A stretch of DNA of 64,000 bases from Longimicrobiales bacterium (GTDB lineage: Bacteria; Gemmatimonadota; Gemmatimonadetes; Longimicrobiales; RSA9), in assembly GCA_036381255.1 (NCBI GenBank), contig DASVDG010000114.1, positions 12,326-76,325 of the forward strand, written 5' to 3'. Below, piece by piece: positions 19,629-37,403 of the stretch. The position numbers were made by a program, and so were the translations under genes. How positions within the stretch are numbered: position 1 is the first letter of the stretch; every line of letters starts with the position of its first letter. The notes under the pieces are model-generated. The model had not been told where the DNA came from. It saw only the letters and a program-made list of their open reading frames with translations, and ran no database searches.

Positions 19629-19711
19629 TGCCGGGGGCGGGACTCGAACCCGCATGCCGTTGGGGCGAGCGATTTTAAGTCGCCTGCGTCTACCAATTCC
19701 GCCACCCCGGC
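19629..19711 (-). tRNA. tRNA-Leu (anticodon UAA)
   Basis: Minus strand GCCGGGGTGGCGGAATTGGTAGACGCAGGCGACTTAAAATCGC...GGGTTCGAGTCCCGCCCCCGGCA: 7-bp acceptor stem, anticodon loop CT-TAA-AA, long variable arm, canonical T-loop. No encoded CCA. Confidence 0.9.
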
Positions 19712-24157: not shown

Positions 24158-25519
24158 TCAGCCGCGCACCTTGCGCACCTCCTCGACCCGCCGCACCGGC
24201 TGGAACACGCACCCCACCGGCTGGAGCGGCACGTAGAGGATCTCGATGTCCTGGAAGTCCTCGCGCAGGTCGGCCTCCTCTTCCAGGATGTCCTCGAGGT
24301 CGTCCTCGCCTGCGGCCTCGCGGCGTTCCTCGAGCTCCTCACGCACGTCCTGCACCTCGTCGGCGTCGGCGTAGACCGGCAGGCCGTTCACCGTGCCGAG
24401 GAACGCCAGATCATCGGGCTCGATCACGCGGCCGCCGCCGTAGGTCACGAATTCGGTCGTCGTCCCGTTCACGGTCAGCGTGAGCGGCTCGCCGGCCACG
24501 AACCAGTCGGCTTCCTCCACCACGACGACGCGCTCCTCGACCACCTGCCCGAGCGGCACCCGCCGTCCGTTCATCGTCACGAGCGTGTCCCCGGTGCTCG
24601 GCACGTAGATCGCCTGGACCTCGGCGATCCCGCCCGGCAGCGACGGGTCGATCACGCACACGGTGATCACCTCCTCGGCGGGCGGCGGCGGCGGCGCCGG
24701 CGGCGCGACGATGGCGACCTCTTCCGGCCTCTCGAGGCCGAACAGGAAGTGCAGGCCGAGCTGGCCGTACAGCTCGTGGATCACGTTGCCGACGTCGTCA
24801 TCCTCTTCATCGTCGATGATGATGATGTCGTCGTCGACGTCCACGTCGACGAAGCCGAGGCGGCGGACCGGCGTGTCCCAGATCCGGTCGCCGACCTCGG
24901 CACGCAGCGCGAATCGCCGCGCGAGACGGATGTCCGTCCCGAGCCCGACCAGCCCCATGAGCTTGGTGTCGTCTTCGAGCAGGAACGCCTCGTCGTCCAC
25001 GATGAACACGGTGCCTTCCTCGCCGTCGAAGTTGTTGAACGCCGGATCGATGAACTTGGCGCCCAACCCCAACGCGAGGTACGGGAGGAACTCCGTGCCC
25101 TCCCAGTCCTCGTTCGGCGAGCCGAACCGGAACAGGAGGTCGCCCGACGCGCTCCACAGGTTCACGTCCTCGATCTCGGCCACCAGGTCGCCATCGATGT
25201 CGCCATCGATGTCGCCGTCGATGCCGTCCTCGATGTCGAACGGGCGCTCCGTGTACGTGCCGTTCGCCCGGATCCCGAGCCCGCCGATCCCGAACAGCCT
25301 GCTGCCGAGCCAGTACGTCAGCTGCGCGCCGACCAGCCAGCCCGCATCGAACTGCGCCTCGCCATCCCCCGGCAGGTGGTCCTCGTCCAGCGAGTTGCTG
25401 TACCACGACCCCCCGCCGTTGACGCCGATGTCCCATCGGTAGTCCTGGGCGTGAGCCGGCAGGGCGGTGGCCAGAGCCACGGCGCCCGCCGCCAGTGCCG
25501 TAAATCCCGTACGTCTCAT
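24158..25519 (-). CDS. outer-membrane beta-barrel protein with poly-acidic loops, a Pro-rich linker and an unrecognised C-terminal domain
   Basis: Start MRRTGFTALAAGAVALATALPAHAQ (signal peptide) at 25519, with GGGAGAG upstream. Alternating aromatic/Gly beta-strand pattern ending ...LGLHFLFG, then APPAPPPPPA, then about 150 aa of unknown fold with an acidic tail. Confidence 0.65.
   Translation of the reverse strand: MRRTGFTALAAGAVALATALPAHAQDYRWDIGVNGGGSWYSNSLDEDHLPGDGEAQFDAGWLVGAQLTYWLGSRLFGIGGLGIRANGTYTERPFDIEDGIDGDIDGDIDGDLVAEIEDVNLWSASGDLLFRFGSPNEDWEGTEFLPYLALGLGAKFIDPAFNNFDGEEGTVFIVDDEAFLLEDDTKLMGLVGLGTDIRLARRFALRAEVGDRIWDTPVRRLGFVDVDVDDDIIIIDDEEDDDVGNVIHELYGQLGLHFLFGLERPEEVAIVAPPAPPPPPAEEVITVCVIDPSLPGGIAEVQAIYVPSTGDTLVTMNGRRVPLGQVVEERVVVVEEADWFVAGEPLTLTVNGTTTEFVTYGGGRVIEPDDLAFLGTVNGLPVYADADEVQDVREELEERREAAGEDDLEDILEEEADLREDFQDIEILYVPLQPVGCVFQPVRRVEEVRKVRG
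25187..25234. repeat. in-frame 12-nt tandem repeat (GTCGCCATCGAT x2, GTCGCCGTCGAT, GCCGTCCTCGAT) encoding DGIDGDIDGDIDGD
   Basis: Read directly. Lies inside the OM protein gene. Confidence 0.9.
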
Positions 25520-25838
25520 GTCCTGCTCTCCCTTGCTGCAGGTCCGCGTCTCTCGGGCGGGCCCGTGCGGTTCGTCGCGGCGCGGGACGACCGCGCCGTC
25601 GGCACGAACCCGCTGCCGACTCCGCCGTTGCACGTTTCGCACCAATTCACATGTTTCGCTCGGCCGGCGAAGCGGCGGTGTGTCCCGGATCTGCACGAAA
25701 CGAAACAGCCCGACGCCGTACCAGGCCGGGCGCGTCATGTGTGCAATTCCTATTCCGATGGGAGTGGGGGCGGCTGGCGCGACGCCCGGGGTCGAACCGC
25801 CGCGCCCGACGGGCGCGGCGGTCGGCGGGCCGGTGCGG

Positions 25839-26519
25839 TCAGCCGTCCATCATGCGCAGCGGGCGCGACGCCGCCGAATTCGCGGCGGCCGCGTCGCTCC
25901 CGACCGCCCGTGCGTGGCGGTCGGGGATGAGGCGCTCGTTGAGGCGGGTGAGCGTGAAGTAGTAGACGACCTCGCCGATCCCTTCGCGGACGTCGAGCGC
26001 CTCCAGATACAGCTCGACGGCTTCGGTGAACGGGAGCTCCTCGTCGAGGATCTCGACGAAGTGCAGGGCGTTGTCGACATGTGCGCCGAGCAGGGCGACC
26101 TCGGTGCGGGCCGCTTCGAGCTCGATCCAGCGGCGGAGCTTCTCGTTGATGCGGCCGCGCAGTCTCTGGCGCAGGTTGCCGAAGAGGCCGAACCGGGCGC
26201 GGCCCAGCTCGGCGGCGGCATCGGCTTCGGCCATGCGTTCGGGCCAGGTCTTCCGGTGCGTGCCGTCCTCGCCGAGTATGGCGAGGGCGCGGGTGGTGAT
26301 GATGCGGGTTTCGTCGTCCGAGAGCCGGAGCAGCCGCGTGTAGATGTCGAGCGCGTCGTCGAACGGGACCTGGTCGCCGACGAGCTCGATCAGCTCGAGG
26401 GCGTGTTCGACGTGTGTTCCCAGCAGGCGCTCCTGGGCGACGGCGATGGCCAGGTCGACGCGGCGGCGGACGGGTTGTGAGATGCCCTTCGAAGCGAACG
26501 GAGTCTTCACGGAAGCCAC
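25839..26519 (-). CDS. hypothetical helical protein with an internal duplication (paralog of 34536-35135)
   Basis: 226 aa. Repeat LLGTHVEHAL..VPFDDALDIY versus LLGAHVDNAL..LPFTEAVELY. About one-third identity by eye to the ORF at 34536-35135. G/C-ending codons. Confidence 0.6.
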   Translation of the reverse strand: MASVKTPFASKGISQPVRRRVDLAIAVAQERLLGTHVEHALELIELVGDQVPFDDALDIYTRLLRLSDDETRIITTRALAILGEDGTHRKTWPERMAEADAAAELGRARFGLFGNLRQRLRGRINEKLRRWIELEAARTEVALLGAHVDNALHFVEILDEELPFTEAVELYLEALDVREGIGEVVYYFTLTRLNERLIPDRHARAVGSDAAAANSAASRPLRMMDG

Positions 26520-26592
26520 TCCAGCGATAGCGAGCCAAGCGGGCGTGGGAACCCGGTCACGGACGGTGCAAAATCCATTCCCCGCAGGCCGT

Positions 26593-27024
26593 TCAGCGCC
26601 TGCGCCCGCGGCGGGCTCCGAAGCCGGGGAGCCGTCGCTGGCGGATGCGTTCTTCGCCGGTGACGTAGTCGGGTCCGTAGCCGAAGCGGTCGCCGAGGTG
26701 GTAGTCGTAGGTGTGCTCGGGGCCGTAGGGGACCGGTGCGCGCCCGTACCGGCCGAGCTCGCCGGGGCCGCTGTAGCCGCGCCCCGCGAGCGGGAACGGG
26801 CGCCGCCGGTCGGGACGGGGGAGCGGCGCCCGGGGCGCAGCGCCCCGGCGGTACGCCTCCCGGCCGGCGCGTTCGCGGCCGTAGCCCGCGCCGCCGTACG
26901 CCTCCCGGCCGTACTCCCGGCCGTACGCTTCGCGGCCGTAGCCCTGGGGTTCGGCTAGGGAGCGACGGACGATGCGGCGGTGCACCCGCCGCGGACGCGG
27001 TTCGTACCCGATGTCGTAACGCAT
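26593..27024 (-). CDS. hypothetical Arg/Gly/Tyr/Pro-rich low-complexity protein
   Basis: 143 aa. ATG 27024 with AGGAGAG upstream. GREAYGREYGREAYGGAGYGRE repeats. N-terminus MRYDIGYEPRPR resembles the start of the BON protein at 34473. Confidence 0.5.
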   Translation of the reverse strand: MRYDIGYEPRPRRVHRRIVRRSLAEPQGYGREAYGREYGREAYGGAGYGRERAGREAYRRGAAPRAPLPRPDRRRPFPLAGRGYSGPGELGRYGRAPVPYGPEHTYDYHLGDRFGYGPDYVTGEERIRQRRLPGFGARRGRRR

Positions 27025-27120
27025 GGCGGCTCTCCTGACCTCCGGTTTCGGCGGGGGTGTTCCGTCCGCCGGGAGGCGGCAAAGCGCGTGCCGGATCAGG
27101 AGAGGGTGGTGCGCGCCGGA

Positions 27121-28647
27121 TCAGGTGAGCGTGGCGCGGGCCTCCGTGATCTGACGGACGACGGCGGCTCGCCCCGTCCCGCCCGGCAGCGACCGGGCCT
27201 CGACGGAGCGCTCCGCGTCGAGCGATCGTCCCAGCCCGGAGGCGAGCGCCGGGTGCGCAGCGGCCCAGACGTCCGCGGGCAGGTCGAAGATCGAGCCGCC
27301 CTCGAGCTCCGCGGCGCGGATCAGCTTTCCGGCCACGCCGTGCGCCTCGCGGAACGGCACGCCGGCCCGGACGAGCTCGTCCGCCAGGTCGGTGGCGAGT
27401 AGCGTGGGGTCGTCCGCGGCGCAGGCCAGCGCCGATTCGTGGAAGCGCAGCCCGGCGACGGTGTCGCGCGTGGCCGGGAGTAGCAGCGCGAGCGCATCGA
27501 ACGCACCGAACAGCAGCGTCTTGTCCTCCTGGAGGTCCTTCTGGTACCCGGAAGGCAGCCCTTTGAGCAGCGCCAGTGCGGCGGCGACGTCGCCGGAGAG
27601 GCGGGCGGCCTTGCCGCGCGCGAGCTCGAGTCCGTCCGGGTTGCGCTTCTGCGGCATGAGGCTCGAGCCCGTGGTCATCGACTCCGGCAGCTCGAGGTAG
27701 CCGAACTCGTCCGTCGAGTAGAGGATCAGGTCCTCGGCGAGGCGCGAGAGGTGCGCGCCGATCATCGCCGCGACGAAGACGAGCTCGCAGACCCAGTCGC
27801 GGTCGCCGATCGCGTCGATCGAGTTCGGCGACATCGCCCGGAACCCCAGCAGCTCCTTCAGCAGCGTGCGGTCGACGGGGAACCCCGAGCCCGCGATCGC
27901 GCCGGAGCCGAGCGGCAGGACGCCCACGCGCTCGAGCGCACCGGCCAGCCGGCCGATGTCCCGCTCGATCGCCCAGAAGTGCGAGAGGAGCCAGTGCGCC
28001 ACGCGCACCGGCTGCCCGCGGCGGAGGTGCGTGTACGCGGGGATCAGGAGGTCGACGGTCGCTTCGGCCTGCTCGAGGAGCGCCCGCTGGAGCCCGCGCA
28101 GGTCGTCCTTCAGCCGCGCGCCCGCGCGCAGCGCCCAGAGCCGCGTGTCCGTCGCGACCTGGTCGTTGCGCGAGCGGCCCGTGTGCAGCTTCCCGGCGAC
28201 ATCGCCCACCTCCTCGTACAGCAGCCGCTCGACGAGCGTGTGGATGTCCTCGTCCGCCGCGCCCTCGGCCGCGCCCGACGCGATCCGCGCCGCGACCCGG
28301 ACCAGGCCCCGGTCCAGCGACTCCGCCTCGCCCGCATCGAGCACGCCGGCGCCCTGCAGCGCCTGGACCCACGCGCGGCTCGCCTCGATGTCCTCCCGCC
28401 ACAGGCGGCGATCCACGGGGAGGCTGCGGTTCAGCTCCTCGAGCGACGGCGCGGGTCCGCCGCCGAACCGGCCCCCCCACAGCCGGTGGCCGCCCGCGGA
28501 CCCGGCGGCCCGCCCCGACATCGACGCCTCGGCGCCCGGGTTGCCGGCGCCGCCCGCGTTTCGGCCGCCGCCCGCGACGTCGTTCCGGCTCGCGCCGGCC
28601 GTGCCGGTCGGGCCCGTCCGACGGCCCGTGCCGCTCGCCCGGCTCAT
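27121..28647 (-). CDS. argH: argininosuccinate lyase
   Basis: [18 protein letters not shown] and [12 protein letters not shown] motifs. Start 28647 is chosen for its ATGA overlap with the argG stop and G/C-ending codons. Alternative ATG at 28521 is 42 codons shorter. The 1170-aa track ORF is an over-extension. Confidence 0.88.
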
Positions 28648-29969
28648 GACCGCCCCCCGACCGCGGCGGTGAGCGCCGACGCCTCCTCGGCCGGCGCGCC
28701 CCCGGCGTGCGTCGAAGGAGCGCCGGCCCCGGCGCGGACCGCCGTGCCCGCGTCCGCCGGCGCGCGCGAGGCCCGCTCGCGCCGCTCGGCCTCGGCACGG
28801 ACCGGCAGTCCGAACAGGCGGATGAAGCCGGCGGCGTCGGCCTGGTCGTAGGCGCCCGCGTCGTCGCCGAACGAGGCCAGCACCTCGTCGTAGAGCGCCT
28901 GTTCGCTCCACCGCCCGACGACCGTCGCGCTCCCCTTGTAGAGCTTGAGCCGGACGGTGCCCGTGACGCGCTCCTGCGTCCGGTCCACCAGTGCGTCGAG
29001 CGCTTCGCGCTCCGTCGTCCACCAGCGCCCTTCGTAGACCAGGTCCGCGTATCGCCCGGCGAGCTGGTCCTTCAGCGCGAGCGTGCGCCGGTCGAGCACC
29101 AGCTGCTCGAGCTCCTGATGCGCGGTCAGCAGGAGCGTGCCGCCGGGCGTCTCGTACACGCCGCGGGATTTCATCCCGACCAGGCGGTCCTCCAGGATGT
29201 CGGCGCGGCCGACGCCGTGCTCGCCGCCGATCGCGTTCAGCCGCTCGAGCAGCGCGACCGGCTCGAGCGCCTCGCCGTCCACGCTCACCGGGTACCCCGC
29301 CTCGAAGCCGATCTCGACGTAGAGCGGCCGGTCCGGCGCGTCCTCCGGCGACGTCGTCATCAGGAACAGGTCGGCCGGCGGCTCGAACGCCGGGTCCTCC
29401 AGTGGGCCGCCCTCGTGCGAGATGTGCCAGAGGTTCCGGTCCCGCGAGTAGATCTTCTCCTTCGACGCGGTCACCTCGACCCCCCGCGCCGCCGCGTACG
29501 CCAGCGCGTCCTCGCGCGACCGGATCGACCACTCCCGCCACGGCGCGATCACGCGCAGCCCCGGCGCGAACGCCTGGTAGCTCAGCTCGAAGCGCACCTG
29601 GTCGTTCCCCTTGCCGGTGCACCCGTGTGCGACGGCGTGCGCGCCGATCGACAGCGCGAGCTCCGCCTGCCGGCGCGCGATCAGCGGCCGGGCCATCGCC
29701 GTGCCGAGCAGGTACTTCCGGGCATAGACCGCGCCGGCACGGAGCGTCGGGAAGATCGCCTCCCGGACGAACGCCTCGCGCAGGTCCTCGACCACGCACG
29801 TGAGCGCGCCCTGGCGCCGCGCCCGCGCCTCGAGGCCGTCCAGCTCGCCCCCCTGCCCCACGTCGGCGGCCATGCACACCACCTCGGCCCCGTAGTTCTC
29901 CCGCAGCCACGGGACGATGATCGACGTGTCCAGCCCGCCCGAATACGCCAGCACGACGGTGAACGACAT
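28644..29969 (-). CDS. argG: argininosuccinate synthase
   Basis: Start [16 protein letters not shown] at 29969 (GGAGG 7 nt upstream). Full-length ArgG pattern plus a roughly 40-aa Ala-rich C-terminal tail. Confidence 0.9.
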
Positions 29970-29990
29970 GCCTGCCTCCATGGTCTCGAT

Positions 29991-30551
29991 TCAGTCTTCC
30001 AGGTCGCGTACGACCGTCGCCTTCATGCACGCGGCCCGGTCGATCCCCTCGTCCCGGTCCGCCGCGATCTTCTCCGGCACGTCCGTCATCGGGACGGTCC
30101 GGAACCCGAGCCGGTGGAAGAATGGCTCCTGCAGCGTCATCGCGAAGACGCGGCGAATGCCGAAGCCGCGCGCCTCCTCCACCAGCGCTTCCACGATCCG
30201 GCGCCCCACCCGCCGCCCCCGACAGTCCTCGGCCACCGCCAGCGCGGCGACCTCGGCGAGCTCCGGCGAATACAGGCGCAGCGCGCCGCACCCCACGATC
30301 CGTCCGCCGTCCGCGGCCACCAGGAACTCGCGGACGTGCCGGTAGAGCACGCCGACCGGCCTCGGCAGGACCAGCCCGAGGCGGGCGTAGGCGTCGAGCA
30401 GCTCCGAGAGCTGCACGACGTCCGCGAGGCGCGCGCGCCGCAACTCGAGCTCCGGGCCCGGCACGACCCCGGCCCGCGCCGTCTCGAGCGGCAGCACGAC
30501 CGCGTCCGCCTCCGGTGCCGCGGGGCCGGCCCAGCTCGCGGCCCGGCTCAT
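29991..30551 (-). CDS. GNAT acetyltransferase resembling the stand-alone (short) N-acetylglutamate synthase domain
   Basis: Start MSRAASWAG at 30551 (ATGA overlap with the argD stop). GCGALRLY...AEVAALAV..D.RGRRVGRRIVEALVEEAR and FF.RLGF are GNAT A/B motifs similar to the ArgA C-terminal domain. Position inside the arg operon. Confidence 0.65.
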   Translation of the reverse strand: MSRAASWAGPAAPEADAVVLPLETARAGVVPGPELELRRARLADVVQLSELLDAYARLGLVLPRPVGVLYRHVREFLVAADGGRIVGCGALRLYSPELAEVAALAVAEDCRGRRVGRRIVEALVEEARGFGIRRVFAMTLQEPFFHRLGFRTVPMTDVPEKIAADRDEGIDRAACMKATVVRDLED

Positions 30552-31708
30552 CCGAGCGCCTCCAACAGCACCGAGAGCCCTTCCTCGAGCTCGGCCGCAT
30601 CGATCGTGAGCGGCGGCAGCAGCCGAACCACACGCTCGCCCGCCGTCAAGACGAGCAGGCCGCGCTCCATCGCCGCGGCGACGACCGGCGCCGCCGCGCC
30701 CTCCAGCTCGATCCCCCACATCAGGCCGCGGCCCCGGACGGCCATCACGCCGCCCCGCCCCACCCGCGGCTCCAGCACCTCGCGCACGCGCTCGCCGCGT
30801 GCGCGCACCGCCTCCAGGAACGCCGGCTCGGCGATCCGCCGCACCACCGCCAGCGCCACCGCGCTCACCAGCGGCCCACCGCCGAACGTCGTCGCGTGGT
30901 CGCCCGGGCGGATCGCGTCCGCCACCCGGCCGGCCAGCAGCACCGCCCCCATCGGCAGCCCGCCGGCGAGCGGCTTCGCGAGCGTCAGGAGGTCCGGCTC
31001 GACGCCCGCCGCCTCGTGCGCGAACAGGTGCCCCGTCCGCCCGAGCCCGCACTGCACCTCGTCGAAGATCAGCGCCGCGCCCGCCTCGTCCGCGAGCGCC
31101 CGCAACCGCCGCAGGTACGCCGCATCCAGCGGGCGCACGCCGCCCTCCCCCTGCACCGGCTCCACGATCACCGCGGCCGTCGACTCCGGCCGGATCGCCT
31201 CCCGCGCGGCGGCCTCGTCGCCCGGCTCCACGAACCGCACGCCGGGCATCAGCGGAGTGAACGGCTCGCGATACGCCGGCCGGTCCGTCGCCGCGAGCGA
31301 GCCGAAGAGCCGGCCGTGGAACGAGCCGTGGACCGCCACCACCTCGTGCTTCCCCGCTCCGCCCCGCTCCCGCGCCCACCGCCGCGCGAACTTGAACGCC
31401 GCCTCGTTCGCCTCCGCGCCCGAGTTGCAGAAGAACACGCGCTCCGCGAACGACCGCGCGACGAGCTCCGCCGCCAGCGCCTCCGCCGGCAACGTGCGGA
31501 ACAGGTTCGACGCGTGGATCAGCCCGCTCGCCAGCGCATCGCCGATCGCGCGCTCGATCGTCGCATCGGCGTAGCCCAGCGCATTGACGCCGATCCCGCT
31601 CGTGAAGTCGAGGTACGCCTTCCCGTCATCGCCGAGGAGCCGGCTCCCCCGCCCCCCGACGAACACCGGACCCGCGGGGCGGTACACCCCCAGAAGCGGA
31701 CTGCTCAT
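30548..31708 (-). CDS. argD: acetylornithine aminotransferase
   Basis: Start MSSPLLGVYRP at 31708 (ATGA overlap with the argB stop). FCNSGAEANEAAFK, DEVQCGLGRTG and TLAKPLAGGLP (PLP Lys) motifs. Confidence 0.88.
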   Translation of the reverse strand: MSSPLLGVYRPAGPVFVGGRGSRLLGDDGKAYLDFTSGIGVNALGYADATIERAIGDALASGLIHASNLFRTLPAEALAAELVARSFAERVFFCNSGAEANEAAFKFARRWARERGGAGKHEVVAVHGSFHGRLFGSLAATDRPAYREPFTPLMPGVRFVEPGDEAAAREAIRPESTAAVIVEPVQGEGGVRPLDAAYLRRLRALADEAGAALIFDEVQCGLGRTGHLFAHEAAGVEPDLLTLAKPLAGGLPMGAVLLAGRVADAIRPGDHATTFGGGPLVSAVALAVVRRIAEPAFLEAVRARGERVREVLEPRVGRGGVMAVRGRGLMWGIELEGAAAPVVAAAMERGLLVLTAGERVVRLLPPLTIDAAELEEGLSVLLEALG

Positions 31709-32487
31709 ACCGCCAGCTCCCCCGGCATCCCCGCCGCGCCCGCCGTCCGCCCCAGCCACGTCCCCACCCGCGAGTCCGCCAGCGCCTCGACCGGCCCGAT
31801 CCGGACCGCGGTCACCCCCGACCGAAGCGCGCGCAGCCCCGCCTTCAGCTTCACCGCCATCCCGTCCCGCGCGACGCCGCACGACAGCAACACCGCCGCT
31901 TCCGCCGCGTCCAGCGTCGCCCGCTCCTTCGTCCCGTCGTGCACCCCGGCGACATCCGTGACGAACAGCAGCTCGATCGCGCCCAGCGCCACGGCGACCG
32001 CCGTCGCCACGTCATCCGCGTTCACGTTCAACGCACCGCCGTCCGTCCCCCGCGAGATCGGCGAGATCACCGGCACCACCCCGAGCGCGAGCAGCCGGCG
32101 CAGCAGCTCGCCGCGCACCCGGACGTTTTCGCCGACCCGCCCGAGAGCGCCGTTCGCCGCCGGCTCCGCGACCACCAGCCCACCATCCTCGCCCGACACC
32201 CCCAGCGCATCCACGCCCGCGCCCACGAGCCGGCGCACCAGCCGCTTGTTCAGCCGCCCCGACAGCACCATCGACGCCACGTCCAGCACTTCCGGCGTCG
32301 TCACCCGCAGACCGCTCGCACGCTCGACCGGGACACCGAGCCGCCCACAGAGCTCGTCCACCTCCGGGCCGCCGCCGTGCACCACGACCAACCCATCGCC
32401 CGCCCGCGCGGCCAGCTCGCCGAATCGGGCCAGCCAGTCGGGCTCGCCCAGCACGCGCCCGCCGACCTTCACCACACGCACCTTCAT
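31705..32487 (-). CDS. argB: acetylglutamate kinase
   Basis: Start MKVRVVKVGG at 32487 (ATGA overlap with the argC stop). VVVHGGGPEV and LNVNADDVA motifs. Confidence 0.85.
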   Translation of the reverse strand: MKVRVVKVGGRVLGEPDWLARFGELAARAGDGLVVVHGGGPEVDELCGRLGVPVERASGLRVTTPEVLDVASMVLSGRLNKRLVRRLVGAGVDALGVSGEDGGLVVAEPAANGALGRVGENVRVRGELLRRLLALGVVPVISPISRGTDGGALNVNADDVATAVAVALGAIELLFVTDVAGVHDGTKERATLDAAEAAVLLSCGVARDGMAVKLKAGLRALRSGVTAVRIGPVEALADSRVGTWLGRTAGAAGMPGELAV

Positions 32488-33446
32488 CGCGGCAGCCCCT
32501 CCGTCTCCTCGATGCCGAGCATCAGATTCGCGTTCTGTACCGCCTGCCCCGCCGCGCCCTTCACCAGGTTGTCCAGCGCCGCCACCACCAGCAGCGTCGG
32601 CGGATCCACATCCACCTCCGCCAACCCCACCACCACCACGTTCCGCTGCACCGCATCCGTCAACGACGGCAGCGATCCGTCCGCCCTCACCTCGACGAAA
32701 GGCTCCGTCGCGTACGCGTCCATCCACAGCTCCAGCGCCGCTTCGCGACTCGACCGTTCCTTCAACGGGACGTAGATCGTCTCCAGGATGCCGCGCCGAA
32801 CCGGCAGCAGATGCGGTGTGAAGATCAACAGCGCCGCGCTCCCCAGCCGCTCGAATCCACGCCTCAGCTCCGGCACGTGGCGGTGCCCGTTCCCCACCCC
32901 GTACGCCCGGTAGTCCTCCGCTACCTCCGCGAACAGCAGCTCCCGACGCGGCGACCGACCCGCGCCCGTCACGCCCGACGCCGCATCGATCACCACCGGG
33001 CGAGACCGGTCGACCAGTCCGTGCCGGAGCGCCGGCCCCAGCGCCACCAGCGCACCCGTCGGGTAGCAGCCCGGGTTCGCCACCAGCGCCGCTCCCCGCA
33101 CCTCCTCCCGCCACAGCTCCGGCAGCCCGTACACCGCCCCGCCTTCGCCACTGCGCAGGTCGCCGGACAGGTCCACCACCCGCGCGCCCGCCTCCCGCGC
33201 CCGCAACGCCCAGGCGCCGGACCGGCCCGTCGGCAGGCAGCAGAACACCAGCTCCACCCCGCCCAGCTCCGCCTCTTCCGCTCCGATGTACCGCCCGCCG
33301 CCCCCCGGAATCGGCGCGCCCGCCTCGGACTCCGAGGTCGCGAACGTCAGCCGCAGCCGGGGGTGCCGCTGGATGAGCGCCACCAGCTCGCGCCCCGCGT
33401 ATCCGCTCGCGCCGATCACGCCGGCGCGAATCTGCGTTTCATTCAT
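32484..33446 (-). CDS. argC: N-acetyl-gamma-glutamyl-phosphate reductase
   Basis: MNETQIRAGVIGASGYAG, NPGCYPT (catalytic Cys). Start 33446 is preferred over 33467 because 33447-33468 is an AT-rich ARG-box palindrome. Confidence 0.85.
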   Translation of the reverse strand: MNETQIRAGVIGASGYAGRELVALIQRHPRLRLTFATSESEAGAPIPGGGGRYIGAEEAELGGVELVFCCLPTGRSGAWALRAREAGARVVDLSGDLRSGEGGAVYGLPELWREEVRGAALVANPGCYPTGALVALGPALRHGLVDRSRPVVIDAASGVTGAGRSPRRELLFAEVAEDYRAYGVGNGHRHVPELRRGFERLGSAALLIFTPHLLPVRRGILETIYVPLKERSSREAALELWMDAYATEPFVEVRADGSLPSLTDAVQRNVVVVGLAEVDVDPPTLLVVAALDNLVKGAAGQAVQNANLMLGIEETEGLPR

Positions 33447-33450
33447 GGTC

Positions 33451-33468
33451 GATGAATAAATATTCATG
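33451..33468. promoter_or_regulatory. ARG box (ArgR operator), canonical type
   Basis: gaTGAATAAATATTCAtg: perfect TGAAT-N4-ATTCA palindrome, an AT-rich island in a 70% GC context, directly upstream of argC. A weak half-box (ATTCA at 33441-33445) sits at the canonical 3-bp box spacing. Confidence 0.75.
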
Positions 33469-33502
33469 CTGCCGCCGTGTCAAGGGCCGATGCGTGCGAT
33501 CG

Positions 33503-33518
33503 GTGCATGACAATGCAC
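33503..33518. promoter_or_regulatory. second operator-like palindrome GTGCAT-GACA-ATGCAC (TGCAT-N4-ATGCA ARG-box variant)
   Basis: Perfect 6+6 inverted repeat with the same 5-4-5 geometry as the ARG box, 36 nt upstream of it. TGCAT/ATGCA half-sites are, to my recollection, the form used in high-GC actinomycetes. Confidence 0.45.
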
Positions 33519-33600
33519 GGGTGGCGGTCGGTGAGGGCCGACGACGCGCCGGGCAGAGACGGGTCGGCGCCGCCCGCTCGGCCGCGCCGACCCGGCTCGA

Positions 33601-34065
33601 TCAGGGCTCGCCGGCGATGCCGGCGATCTCCTCGAGGCGCTGCTGGACGGTGGGGAGGTGCGCGGGATCGCGGAGGATGAGGAGAATGGTATCGTCGCCG
33701 GCAAGGGTGCCGAGGACCTCGGGCCACTCCTCCCAGTCGATGGCGATGGCGACGGGCTGTGCCCCGCCGGTGAGGGTCTTGACGAGGAGGAGGTTGCCCG
33801 TGCCTTCAGCGCTGACGAAGAGCGTGGGGAGCAGCCGGCCGAGGGGCGGTGTCTGGTCCCAGGCCTCGGGCGGGAGGGTGTAGTGCATCCCGCCTTCGGC
33901 GTCGGGGACCTTGACGAGGCGGAGCTCGCGGATGTCGCGGGACAGGGTGGCCTGCGTGACGTCCAGGCCGCGTTCCGCGAGGAGCTCGCGCAGGTGCTCC
34001 TGGCTGGTGACCCGGTGTTCGCGGACGATTTCGAGGATCGCCGCGTGTCGCTGTCTCTTGTTCAT
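33601..34065 (-). CDS. argR: arginine repressor
   Basis: 154 aa. MNKRQRHAAILEIV..H.V.SQE.L...L...G..VTQATLSRDI.EL winged-helix domain, then a C-terminal oligomerisation domain with GTLAGDDTILL. Confidence 0.9.
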   Translation of the reverse strand: MNKRQRHAAILEIVREHRVTSQEHLRELLAERGLDVTQATLSRDIRELRLVKVPDAEGGMHYTLPPEAWDQTPPLGRLLPTLFVSAEGTGNLLLVKTLTGGAQPVAIAIDWEEWPEVLGTLAGDDTILLILRDPAHLPTVQQRLEEIAGIAGEP

Positions 34066-34098
34066 GGAGGGGAGGATGCCGCCGGGGGCGGGGCGGCG

Positions 34099-34473
34099 TC
34101 AAGATTCGACTTCGAGTCGGTTCTTCAGGTCGCGCACGCCGGGCACGCCCTTCGCGTCCCGGAGCGCGCGGGGGATTTCGGCCGGATCGGGGAGCATGCC
34201 GGTCAGGGTGACGACGCCGTCATCGACCTCGACCAGGATCCGGTCGGCGTCGATCCAGGTGTCCTGGAACAGGGCCTGCTCGACGTCCGCGCGGATCCAG
34301 TGGTCGGGTCGCCGGCGGCGCAACAGGCGGCCGCGGTACGGCCCCTGTCCCGGCTGCGGCGGGGGCGGCTCGCGCCGGCGGCCGGTCCGCTTTTCGCGGG
34401 GCTCCCGCATCCCCGGACCGAACCCGAACTCGTACGGCCGGGCCGGCCCGTAGCCGATGTCCTCGCGGGTCAC
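34099..34473 (-). CDS. BON-domain protein with a G/Y/P/R-rich N-terminal region
   Basis: C-terminus RADVEQALFQDTWIDADRILVEVDDGVVTLTGMLPDPAEIPRALRDAKGVPGVRDLKNRLEV is a BON domain. The start at GTG 34473 (TREDIGYGPARP) is inferred from similarity to MRYDIGYEPRPR of the ORF at 27024. An internal ATG (MREPREK) is an alternative. No SD seen. Confidence 0.6.
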   Translation of the reverse strand: MTREDIGYGPARPYEFGFGPGMREPREKRTGRRREPPPPQPGQGPYRGRLLRRRRPDHWIRADVEQALFQDTWIDADRILVEVDDGVVTLTGMLPDPAEIPRALRDAKGVPGVRDLKNRLEVES

Positions 34474-34535
34474 GAGGGAGGAGTCGGGTCGGCCACGGCT
34501 CGGCCTCTCCCGCTGCTCGTCGCGCCCGCGCCGCC

Positions 34536-35135
34536 TCACGCCGCCTGTCCGTCCGCGGCCTCGGGCGCTCGCGGCGCCGGGCGTTCCAGTTGCCCCATCG
34601 AAGCCACCGCCTCGTGGAAGATGCGCTCGCGCCAGCCCTGGCCGATCTCGAGGGCGTCGATGTAGACCTGGACGGCTTCGGCGGGCTCGACCTCGGTCTT
34701 CAGCTCGTCCACCAGCAGCGATGCGCCGTGGAGATACGCACCCTTGATCTTGTCGCGCGCGCGCCCGGCGGCGCGGTCGACACGCAGCCGCAGCGATTCG
34801 GCCCGCCGCCCCCTGAGCCGCCGGGCGATGCCCTGGACGAGCCCCCACACGCCGTTGCTGAGGTCGAACATCGGCGCACCGACCTCCGGCTCCTCGGCCA
34901 GGCTCGCCAGCGCCTGGACCGCCACGGCCTCGCGGATGCGATCCGGCGTGCCGGTCAGCCGGAAGAAGATCTCCAGGCCGCGCTCGTACGCGACCTCCTC
35001 CCGCGTCACCCGGAGAAAGTCCCGCGCCGCCTCCGCGTGCGCCTCGATCAAGCGCTCCTCGGCCGTCGCCAGGGCGAGCGTCAACCGGCGGCGTTGGACG
35101 GGCGATCTCTGCAACGAGTGCCAGGCCGGGCCCAT
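34536..35135 (-). CDS. hypothetical helical protein (paralog of 25839-26519)
   Basis: Start MGPAWHSLQRSPVQRRRLTLALATAEERL at 35135. 199 aa. Ungapped by-eye alignment to the 226-aa paralog gives 24/67 and 26/84 identities in two blocks. Confidence 0.6.
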   Translation of the reverse strand: MGPAWHSLQRSPVQRRRLTLALATAEERLIEAHAEAARDFLRVTREEVAYERGLEIFFRLTGTPDRIREAVAVQALASLAEEPEVGAPMFDLSNGVWGLVQGIARRLRGRRAESLRLRVDRAAGRARDKIKGAYLHGASLLVDELKTEVEPAEAVQVYIDALEIGQGWRERIFHEAVASMGQLERPAPRAPEAADGQAA

Positions 35136-35202
35136 GATCACCTCGTGGATCCGAATTCCAGGGAGCCGTTGACTCAGCCCTCCCCTGCTGCAAGGCGCAT
35201 GC

Positions 35203-35255
35203 ACAAAGGGCGGCGGCCCCGGCTCCCCCGCGTGCGCGAGCCGGGGCCGCCGCCC
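35203..35255 (-). terminator. strong hairpin terminator after the secreted-protein gene
   Basis: Minus strand: GGGCGGCGGCCCCGGCTC - 12-nt loop - GAGCCGGGGCCGCCGCCC, followed by TTTGTG. 18-bp perfect stem. Confidence 0.7.
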
Positions 35256-35277: not shown

Positions 35278-35898
35278 TCAGGAACCGCCGAAGAGCAACA
35301 CCGCGTCGACCCGGCCGTCCCCGTCGAGGTCCGTGAGCTCCGCGAGCGGACGGTCCCCCGACCGGACCTGGAGCACGTCCCCGCCGTATCCGCCGGCACG
35401 CAGCCAGCGCCCCTGGAGCGGACCACCGCCGCTTCGCCGACCGGCCTCGCTCAGCCGGCCGAACACCACGTCGCCCAGGATGTCGATCAGCGTCCCGCGC
35501 CCCAGCGACGCCTCCCGGCGCCCCACATCCCCGAACACGATGTCGCCCCAGCCGACGCGCCGCCACACGTCGTACCGGCCGAACCCCTTCTCCGCGCACC
35601 ACCGGCGCCCGTGCACCGGATGCCCCTCCCCGTTCCGGCAAAACTTCGGCCCACGGCCGCCCCGGTCCCCCCGGCGCCGGTCGTCCCAACGCCCATCCCG
35701 GTCGCCCCCCGGCCACGGCAGCACCACCGCGCCGCGCGCCGTCCGGATCCGCTCGCCCGCCGCCACCGACGGCAGCGCCCACTCCCACCACCCATCGCCC
35801 CGCGGCGCCTGCGCCGACGCGTCCACCGGAACCGCCAGCCCGAGCCCCGCCACGGCGATCCCCAGCAGCACCTTCTTCATGCTCACCTGCCTGCTCAT
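35278..35898 (-). CDS. hypothetical secreted protein
   Basis: MSRQVSMKKVLLGIAVAGLGLAVPVDASAQ signal peptide (start 35898 or 35880). Cys pair in FCRNGEGHPVHGRRWCAEKGFG. C-terminal DLDGDGRVD Ca-binding-like loop. Confidence 0.6.
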   Translation of the reverse strand: MSRQVSMKKVLLGIAVAGLGLAVPVDASAQAPRGDGWWEWALPSVAAGERIRTARGAVVLPWPGGDRDGRWDDRRRGDRGGRGPKFCRNGEGHPVHGRRWCAEKGFGRYDVWRRVGWGDIVFGDVGRREASLGRGTLIDILGDVVFGRLSEAGRRSGGGPLQGRWLRAGGYGGDVLQVRSGDRPLAELTDLDGDGRVDAVLLFGGS

Positions 35899-37226: not shown

Positions 37227-37298
37227 AGGCCCCGGGCGGATTCGAACCGCCGAATAGAGGTTTTGCAGACCTCCGCCTTACCACTTGGCTACGGGGCC
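37227..37298 (-). tRNA. tRNA-Cys (anticodon GCA)
   Basis: Minus strand GGCCCCGTAGCCAAGTGGTAAGGCGGAGGTCTGCAAAACCTC...GGTTCGAATCCGCCCGGGGCCT: acceptor stem pairs, anticodon loop CT-GCA-AA. No encoded CCA. Confidence 0.9.
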
Positions 37299-37330: not shown

Positions 37331-37403
37331 AGCGGGAAACCGGACTCGAACCGGCGACCTTCTGCATGGCAAGCAGACGCTCTACCAACTGAGCTATTCC
37401 CGC
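37331..37403 (-). tRNA. tRNA-Gly (anticodon GCC)
   Basis: Minus strand GCGGGAATAGCTCAGTTGGTAGAGCGTCTGCTTGCCATGCAGAAGGTCGCCGGTTCGAGTCCGGTTTCCCGCT: anticodon loop TT-GCC-AT. No encoded CCA. Confidence 0.9.

Follow-up and report, generated by a model that had tools for sequence, protein, structure and literature searches.

Duplicated-helix proteins flanking an arginine operon in Longimicrobiales: an undescribed family with a putative sigma-54-type upstream signature

The arginine operon of a Longimicrobiales bacterium (GenBank assembly GCA_036381255.1) raises a simple question: what are the two pairs of genes that bracket it, and are they copies of one another? The window analysed here, to which all window coordinates refer, is a 64-kb stretch of contig DASVDG010000114.1 (positions 12,326 to 76,325). 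Downstream of argH lie smallA (26593..27024, 143 residues) and then helA (25839..26510, 223 residues); upstream of argR, helB (34536..35135, 199 residues) opens a helB-BON-argR string, in which smallB (34099..34473, 124 residues) is the BON gene. These, and all other genes treated here, are encoded on the minus strand. A sequence-only reading of this region had taken the two pairs for diverged copies of one two-gene module, comprising a helical protein and a small partner. We find that the helical proteins belong to a multi-paralog family of cytoplasmic, all-alpha proteins of approximately 200-230 residues, formed by tandem duplication of a helix and a hairpin resembling the tetratricopeptide repeat (TPR). 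Neither the smallA-helA nor the BON-helB pairing is stable across this family; its steadier features are a -24/-12-like motif 5' of the helical genes and a position beside arginine genes, neither of which the sequence-only reading had picked out.

The window is 70-77% guanine plus cytosine (GC) and its closest protein matches are metagenome-assembled genomes labelled Longimicrobiales or Gemmatimonadota. That the four genes are spurious open reading frames (ORFs) of high-GC DNA is ruled out by GC at third codon positions (GC3) and by protein conservation. All four show coding-type codon-position GC, with GC3 of 0.88-0.92 (0.90 in helA, 0.88 in smallA) and second-position values (GC2) of 0.44-0.63, against GC3 of 0.67-0.80 in the opposite-strand ORFs that overlap them, and all four have conserved homologs elsewhere. 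The four ORFs are present where they had been placed, except that helA probably starts with the GTG at 26510, since the database entry and orthologs begin MKTPFASK, and not at 26519, which is 9 nt too far upstream. The helical proteins are homologous (BLASTP E=2e-21, 31% identity across 181 residues), as had been argued from an alignment by eye; the alignment has 11 gap positions, however, and is not the ungapped match described. An internal duplication had also been proposed and is borne out, both within helA, where the N- and C-terminal halves match at E=8e-12 (29% across 87 residues), and across the family, where profiles of the two halves align with an hhalign probability of 97.9% (E=5e-13). 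No further family member is present in the window.

An AlphaFold2 (AF2) model of helA (predicted local distance difference test, pLDDT, 82.8; predicted template modelling score, pTM, 0.70) is confident in its helical parts and consists of seven helices, at residues 15-50, 53-63, 68-84, 92-106, 114-157, 164-175 and 179-197. These include two matching sets, each a helix of 36-44 residues with two short helices, and the linker between the sets is of low confidence. Isoelectric points (pI) are 5.5 for helA and 6.5 for helB, and the proteins have no cysteines and no signal peptide. A ferritin-like di-iron protein, which is also a duplicated helix pair, was considered and rejected, as the Glu and His positions differ between helA and helB. 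In many proteins of the helA clade a disordered linker is followed by a conserved terminal motif, R-x-L-R-V-V-E-x-x-G (alignment A1, columns 280-310), which could be a docking or degradation tag; the C-terminus of helA in the window (25839-25900) reads RPLRMMDG, and helB lacks this C-terminal motif.

The family is sizeable. Word-indexed searches returned 634 relatives of helA, all annotated as hypothetical save one that its source labels 'TPR repeat protein', and 20 relatives of helB. When 1.84 billion cluster representatives were searched exhaustively with a profile, 373 members emerged at E<=1e-3 and 180 at E<=1e-10; the 373, each a representative at 50% identity, are a lower bound on family size. 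Nearly all members found by this search are 200-240 residues long, and all that are taxonomically named come from Gemmatimonadota or Longimicrobiales. A neighbour-joining tree of 127 members places helA, helB, a clade linked to speA and a further large radiation in separate deep clades; helA and helB are therefore old paralogs, and not the product of a recent local duplication. The sequence-only reading did not recognise the family, and our searches agree with it: the helical proteins fit no described family, having no Pfam or NCBIfam match at threshold and no fold neighbour in either PDB or BFVD. Apart from BON, the four proteins yielded no family when scanned against Pfam, NCBIfam and PADLOC, and the PADLOC anti-phage models matched none of six proteins of the region. 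Longer family members were scanned for informative domain fusions; the only one to turn up joins a LOG-family domain and is probably a chimera of the assembly.

The small proteins do not share this clear relationship. The product of smallA is a lineage-restricted, strongly basic protein (pI 11.0), rich in R, G, Y and P, and disordered, with a conserved linear motif. Its AF2 model has a pLDDT of 51 and is without secondary structure, such that the whole protein is predicted to be disordered, and an alignment of 13 homologs nevertheless contains 26 invariant columns. The motif is C-terminal, in a block of about 60 residues: PDRRxPFPxxGxGYxGPGExxRYGxAPVPYGPEHTYDYHxGDRYGYGPDF. Orthologs start MRYDxWYExR, and the I and G of the 'DIGY' peptide, on which the proposed kinship of the small proteins had in part been based, are not conserved among them; the GYGREAYGREYGRE repeats are likewise an insertion particular to the window genome.

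By contrast with smallA, smallB has a clear BON domain (PF04972, E=1.2e-15; 58 bits, cut-off 27), which had correctly been assigned to this partner only, and its family profile matches OsmY (8rjx) at E=8.5e-17. It resembles the BON proteins OsmY and DolP/YraP in this one domain, and differs from them in having a single BON stretch, no signal peptide or lipobox, a polar N-terminus (MTREDIGYGPARP) and a disordered tail. The tail contains the invariant peptide REDIGYGPARPYE, the family N-terminus being [ML][TS]REDIGYGPARPYE (alignment A5). The OsmY equivalog model scores 32 bits on smallB, far below its cut-off of 174. The single BON domain, the missing export signal and this low score together identify smallB as a cytoplasmic relative, and not an ortholog, of OsmY or DolP.

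The N-terminal peptide said to be common to the two small proteins did not survive closer comparison. BLASTP between smallA and smallB gives E=0.2-0.5, which is not significant; hhalign of the 13-member smallA alignment against the 6-member smallB alignment gives a probability of 1.1% (E=0.049); and when the disordered part of smallB is shuffled with its composition preserved, 7% of the shuffles match the best local alignment (P=0.07). What the two have in common is a composition rich in R, G, Y and P, disorder, and a loose YGPxxxY[DE]...[FY]G[YF]GP pattern. As judged from these alignments, homology of smallA and smallB is not demonstrable, and the 'DIGY' match appears to be partly a coincidence of the window genome.

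To place both pairs in context we compiled a census of 39 loci (cited below by locus number, with coordinates local to each). It is a modest sample and biased towards Longimicrobiales; the scan of genome contigs, by a single peptide pattern, contributed 22 loci, and a metagenome scan for helB relatives at least three. With the window excluded, argH lies directly 5' of helA in 17 of the 23 loci of the helA clade. Only six of these 17 have smallA between argH and helA, and in the remaining 11 the two are separated by 75-320 nt without a comparable ORF. A seventh smallA locus, L002, has smallA, helA and a homolog of OMP526 (our name for the outer-membrane protein gene that follows helA in the window) after a thiolase gene instead of argH. 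This brings loci with smallA to 7/23; those smallA homologs whose context is visible all adjoin helA. An identical helA protein (P0007) occurs in L001 (5500-6000), where argH is 5' of smallA, and in L002 (1850-2300), beside the thiolase; in L001 the automatic gene call had chosen a wrong-frame ORF of 75 residues in place of smallA. Directly 3' of helA, an OMP526 homolog is found in 11 of the 23 loci and a transketolase gene in eight.

On the other side of the operon, argR is 3' of helB in all eight related loci that reach far enough, and it is the gene between them that changes. Among nine related loci with DNA 3' of helB it is a BON gene in five, a polytopic membrane protein of about 170 residues in three (L029 8281-9048, L036 1960-2481 and L037 402-1013, which are 71-88% identical to one another) and absent in one (L018). 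The pairing of helical and small genes had been described as conserved, and the census speaks otherwise.

These observations bear directly on the proposal that a two-gene module was duplicated whole, with later divergence of the copies. The helical genes are indeed paralogous, both small partners share the composition and loose pattern described above, and in all loci seen both small families are confined to the vicinity of a helical gene. Yet the resemblance of the small partners is at the level of chance once composition is controlled, the two copies run in opposite gene order (an inversion that had been noted from the outset), and helA and helB descend from deep, separate clades. Moreover, each small gene occurs in only part of its clade, the BON gene being exchangeable with a membrane protein gene, and smallA has a promoter motif of its own, of the type described next, whereas smallB has none. 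The duplicated-module model is largely refuted by this evidence and we give it very little credence; what can be said is that the helical pair is homologous and the small pair not demonstrably so.

The feature that does recur is in the DNA. A conserved block upstream of helA was spotted through a short peptide recurring in translations of helA upstream regions, and it has the form of a sigma-54 promoter. Such promoters have the consensus TGGCACG-N4-TTGCW and a GG-N10-GC geometry; the block shares with them GG and GC doublets at an exact 10-nt spacing and an invariant TTGCA, conserved while its flanks drift. In the 64-kb window the strict pattern GG[CA]A[CT][GA]-N4-TTGC[ACT] has three matches against 0.13 expected, all on the minus strand, intergenic and 5' of three consecutive genes: smallA (GGCACGCGCTTTGCC, 27078..27092, canonical, between argH and smallA), helA (GGAATGGATTTTGCA, 26567..26581, 56 nt 5' of the helA start) and OMP526 (GGAATAGGAATTGCA, 25742..25756, overlapping a terminator-like hairpin at 25728-25706 after helA). 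A relaxed pattern has five matches against 0.5 expected, four of which precede these three genes and helB, where the element (TGCATGCGCCTTGCA, 35189..35203, also minus strand) is a variant with T in place of the first G of the GG doublet.

Conservation of these elements extends to other genomes. Upstream of helA, GG and TTGCA are invariant and their spacing fixed in 23/23 loci, flanking positions are not conserved, and the element lies 55-100 nt from the start codon. GGCAC-N5-TTGC occurs at the equivalent place in six of seven related smallA loci, and an element is found 5' of all 11 OMP526 homologs that adjoin helA (L001, L002, L008, L011-L013, L022 and L024-L027). The helB variant, [T/A]GCA[C/T]G-N4-TTGC[A/C], is present in each of the eight loci having upstream DNA. 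At the distant locus L031 the element stands before each of the two paralogs, in both cases as an identical GGTATGCGGATTGCC, and a further GGCACGCGCGTTGCC follows the second; the L039 paralog has the element too. Two other explanations of the block were examined: an ECF-type (extracytoplasmic function) GGAAC promoter, which is unlikely because nothing resembling a conserved -10 block occurs 16-17 nt downstream, and a structured RNA, the block being no known RNA since Rfam matched only three tRNA genes in the window. There is no terminator-like site between argH and helA, and a strong one follows OMP526 (24134-24105). The four window elements together could define a first sigma-54 promoter consensus (GGAAYGGAANTTGCACC) for Longimicrobiales.

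Our preferred account, which we hold tentatively, is that the helical proteins are TPR-like adaptors under enhancer-dependent control, with the small genes as clients, in a sigma-54-controlled response. If the elements are what they resemble, transcription would depend on an enhancer-binding activator, and the genes would be switched on by a signal and not by passive read-through from the argC promoter, which ArgR represses. The helical proteins would then serve as protein-protein adaptors or holders, whose acidic, TPR-like surface could dock basic, disordered segments rich in Tyr, Gly and Pro. Where present, the smallA protein, or perhaps the tail of the BON protein, would be a lineage-specific client, and the whole set would form part of a stress, envelope or nitrogen response controlled by sigma-54.

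The case for smallA as a client is that it is disordered and has 26 invariant columns, that its pI contrasts with that of helA (11.0 against 5.5), that it always stands beside helA and that it has its own matching promoter; it also stays with helA in L002, where thiolase and not argH is upstream. The usual ligands of TPR domains are short peptides in their partner proteins, and peptide recognition by the helical proteins, as the sequence-only reading had suggested, is still a reasonable guess, because sub-threshold TPR signals are consistent and because smallA combines disorder with a strongly conserved linear motif. Candidate binding peptides are REDIGYGPARPYEFGYGPG and RYGxAPVPYGPEHTYDYHLGDRYGYGPDF.

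The likeness to TPR proteins (clan CL0020) lies in an all-alpha architecture of helix-turn-helix hairpins and perhaps in the local signature of the A and B helices (A..Y..AL..P-like), the family motif EAVELYLEALEV aligning to the consensus TPR stretch AIEYYQKALELDP. Weak TPR_7 matches occur in 22 of 41 members (best 17.8 bits, cut-off 27.9), one member is, as noted, named for the repeat in its source, and the family profile matches the TPR region of OGT (E=1e-4 over about 57 residues). A 25-residue match to designed consensus TPR proteins was also obtained with this profile, although the high scores there represent one short match summed over many identical repeats. The differences are equally plain: the helical family has one hairpin per unit, each after a 36-44-residue helix, and two units where TPR proteins stack three or more 34-residue repeats into a superhelix.

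Several results weigh against this account and must be set beside it. No helical protein reaches the curated threshold of any TPR family model, and Foldseek with the helA model retrieved no TPR structure or other neighbour (best E=1.6 in PDB and 0.35 in BFVD, template modelling score about 0.2). The partnership with small genes is not general: smallA is missing from 16 of the 23 related helA loci, which speaks against a specific partnership, and BON from 4/9 related helB loci, which rules out a dedicated partnership as the core function; nor, as shown above, do the two small families share a motif. The sigma-54 component rests on consensus and conservation, and the consensus is imperfect, the helA element having A where GGCAC has its first C (it reads GGAAYG), and the helB element keeping GC and the spacing without the first G of GG ([T/A]GCAYG). 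The motif was not found in the speA-linked clade, or at L032 and L038. Finally, neither the RpoN box RRTVxKYR nor the activator motif GAFTGA was found in the window and 39 loci (0.5 Mb examined), and none of 10 further large ORFs scanned in the window is an activator. The only literature found on sigma-54 in Gemmatimonadota is a general survey of 842 genomes, according to which sigma-54 occurs in nearly all diderm, lipopolysaccharide-bearing bacteria (PMC3162934).

The same promoter motif invites comparison with PspA, a sigma-54-controlled helical stress protein of about 220 residues that binds its own enhancer-binding activator. By analogy, the helical proteins might be general effectors or feedback regulators of a sigma-54 regulon, with no specific tie to small genes or to arginine and with synteny that is simply inherited. 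Their size and all-helical architecture with long helices fit this, as do the -24/-12 motif before most family members and before the adjacent outer-membrane protein gene, and the way in which neighbours vary over the family. The likeness to PspA/IM30 is, however, an analogy only: no PspA_IM30 (PF04012) match at E<=1 was obtained in 41 members (alignment A1), Foldseek gave no fold neighbour, and neither a linked pspF-like activator gene nor pspBC genes accompany the family at the loci examined. We consider such a role unlikely.

The main rival to our preferred account is a link with arginine or nitrogen metabolism, in which the helical family would be an accessory or regulatory part, for example by modulating ArgR or an arginine enzyme, and the small genes would be incidental. 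Its attraction is an adjacency that we regard as suggestive, since three clades each stand beside a different arginine gene. Members of the helA clade directly follow argH in 17/23 loci, at the short distances given above when smallA is absent, and helB precedes argR in 8/8 whatever the middle gene. In the third clade the helical gene has a divergent speA (biosynthetic arginine decarboxylase, 832 bits) on one side and a co-directional Peptidase_M50/CBS gene on the other, on three of three contigs (L030 3728-7754, L033 3822-7837 and L034 3807-7877), the other flanks of which differ. In other bacteria, furthermore, genes of nitrogen and arginine catabolism are commonly under sigma-54 control.

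Against this, members in L031, L032, L038 and L039 occupy unrelated contexts, which include an amidohydrolase gene flanked by two family paralogs (L031 3661-6646), a major facilitator superfamily transporter gene (L032), and an ATP-grasp gene with ferrochelatase (L038). Moreover, helA and helB flank a single operon, and so do not represent two independent associations; all loci belong to one phylum, within which gene order is perhaps merely inherited; and helA retains OMP526, not argH, as its neighbour in L002, L022 and L024-L027. The helical genes have no ARG box in their vicinity, and the association was noticed post hoc. An arginine-specific role is accordingly doubtful in our estimation, if less so than the PspA-like one.

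As had been read from the sequence, the two pairs bracket the arginine operon; its genes are argR, argC, argB, argD, a GNAT gene, argG and argH. The complete order of transcription is ORF206, helB, smallB, argR, argC, argB, argD, GNAT, argG, argH, smallA, helA, OMP526 and then split transketolase genes. The product of argR (33601..34065), which begins 33 nt 3' of smallB, matches both the N- and C-terminal Arg_repressor domains of Pfam and TIGR01529 argR_whole (137 bits, cut-off 130). In the remainder (27121..33446), argC, argB, argD, argG and argH exceed the NCBIfam equivalog cut-offs, and the sixth gene, between argD and argG (29991-30560), encodes a GNAT amino-acid N-acetyltransferase-like protein that may supply the ArgA function; argJ, argE and argF are not in the cluster.

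A perfectly palindromic ARG box, TGAATAAATATTCA (33453..33466, plus strand), lies in the argC promoter just 3' of a TTGACA hexamer. It is the sole match in the window even at three mismatches, and is kept 5' of argC in L005 and L009. Because the box and the first in-frame argC ATG overlap, translation probably begins at the second, 33446 (MNETQIRAGV...). In having argR and this palindrome, the bracketed genes resemble other ArgR-controlled operons and make up a classical arg cluster. The helical genes and their small neighbours differ: no TGAAT-N4-ATTCA site occurs near helA, smallA, helB or smallB at up to three mismatches, and with apparently separate promoters they are neighbours of the regulon.

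Of the flanking genes, OMP526 (24158..25519) encodes an outer-membrane beta-barrel (PF13505 OMP_b-brl, E=2.5e-8), with a likely start at 25519 (MRRTGF). The barrel is interrupted by very acidic stretches, DGDIDGDIDGD and DDDIIIIDDEEDDD (pI 4.2), and the protein has a proline-rich linker and an unassigned C-terminal domain. At the other end, ORF206 (35278..35898), 5' of helB, encodes 206 residues with a signal-peptide-like N-terminus; it is G/R/W-rich and has no Pfam match. It recurs as a second neighbour of helical genes, with homologs 5' of helB in L004 (4261-4857) and directly 5' of helA in L026 (2727-3422) and L027 (7485-7886). A tandem-domain universal stress protein (USP) gene is divergent from ORF206, and the two Usp stretches of its product agree with what had been reported next door to the operon. 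Pfam identified ArgR, USP, OMP_b-brl and transketolase in the window. The three tRNA genes found by Rfam are at 37227-37298, 37331-37403 and 19629-19711, all on the minus strand, the first two in tandem just past the USP gene.

This study has shown that the helical family is real and undescribed, and that it carries an interesting regulatory signature, while a function for it is only proposed. One such proposal is that the family may link an enhancer-dependent signal to arginine metabolism and to the arginine repressor, through helB beside argR, helA beside argH and the speA-linked member, here helC, beside speA, with smallA or the BON tail docking to it. We think this combination rather improbable, more so than either the adaptor or the arginine account, but were it true, arginine and polyamine metabolism would be subject to a level of regulation that is undescribed in any bacterium. 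If the sigma-54 reading is correct, Longimicrobiales would gain from these loci a small regulon along with its first promoter consensus, and argR would lie downstream of an enhancer-dependent promoter. What has been defined is a sizeable uncharacterised family (at least 373 clusters at 50% identity), apparently restricted to a phylum with almost no genetics; it now has an anatomy, in the duplicated helix-plus-hairpin unit, and a regulatory hook, in the conserved element that stands before three consecutive genes.

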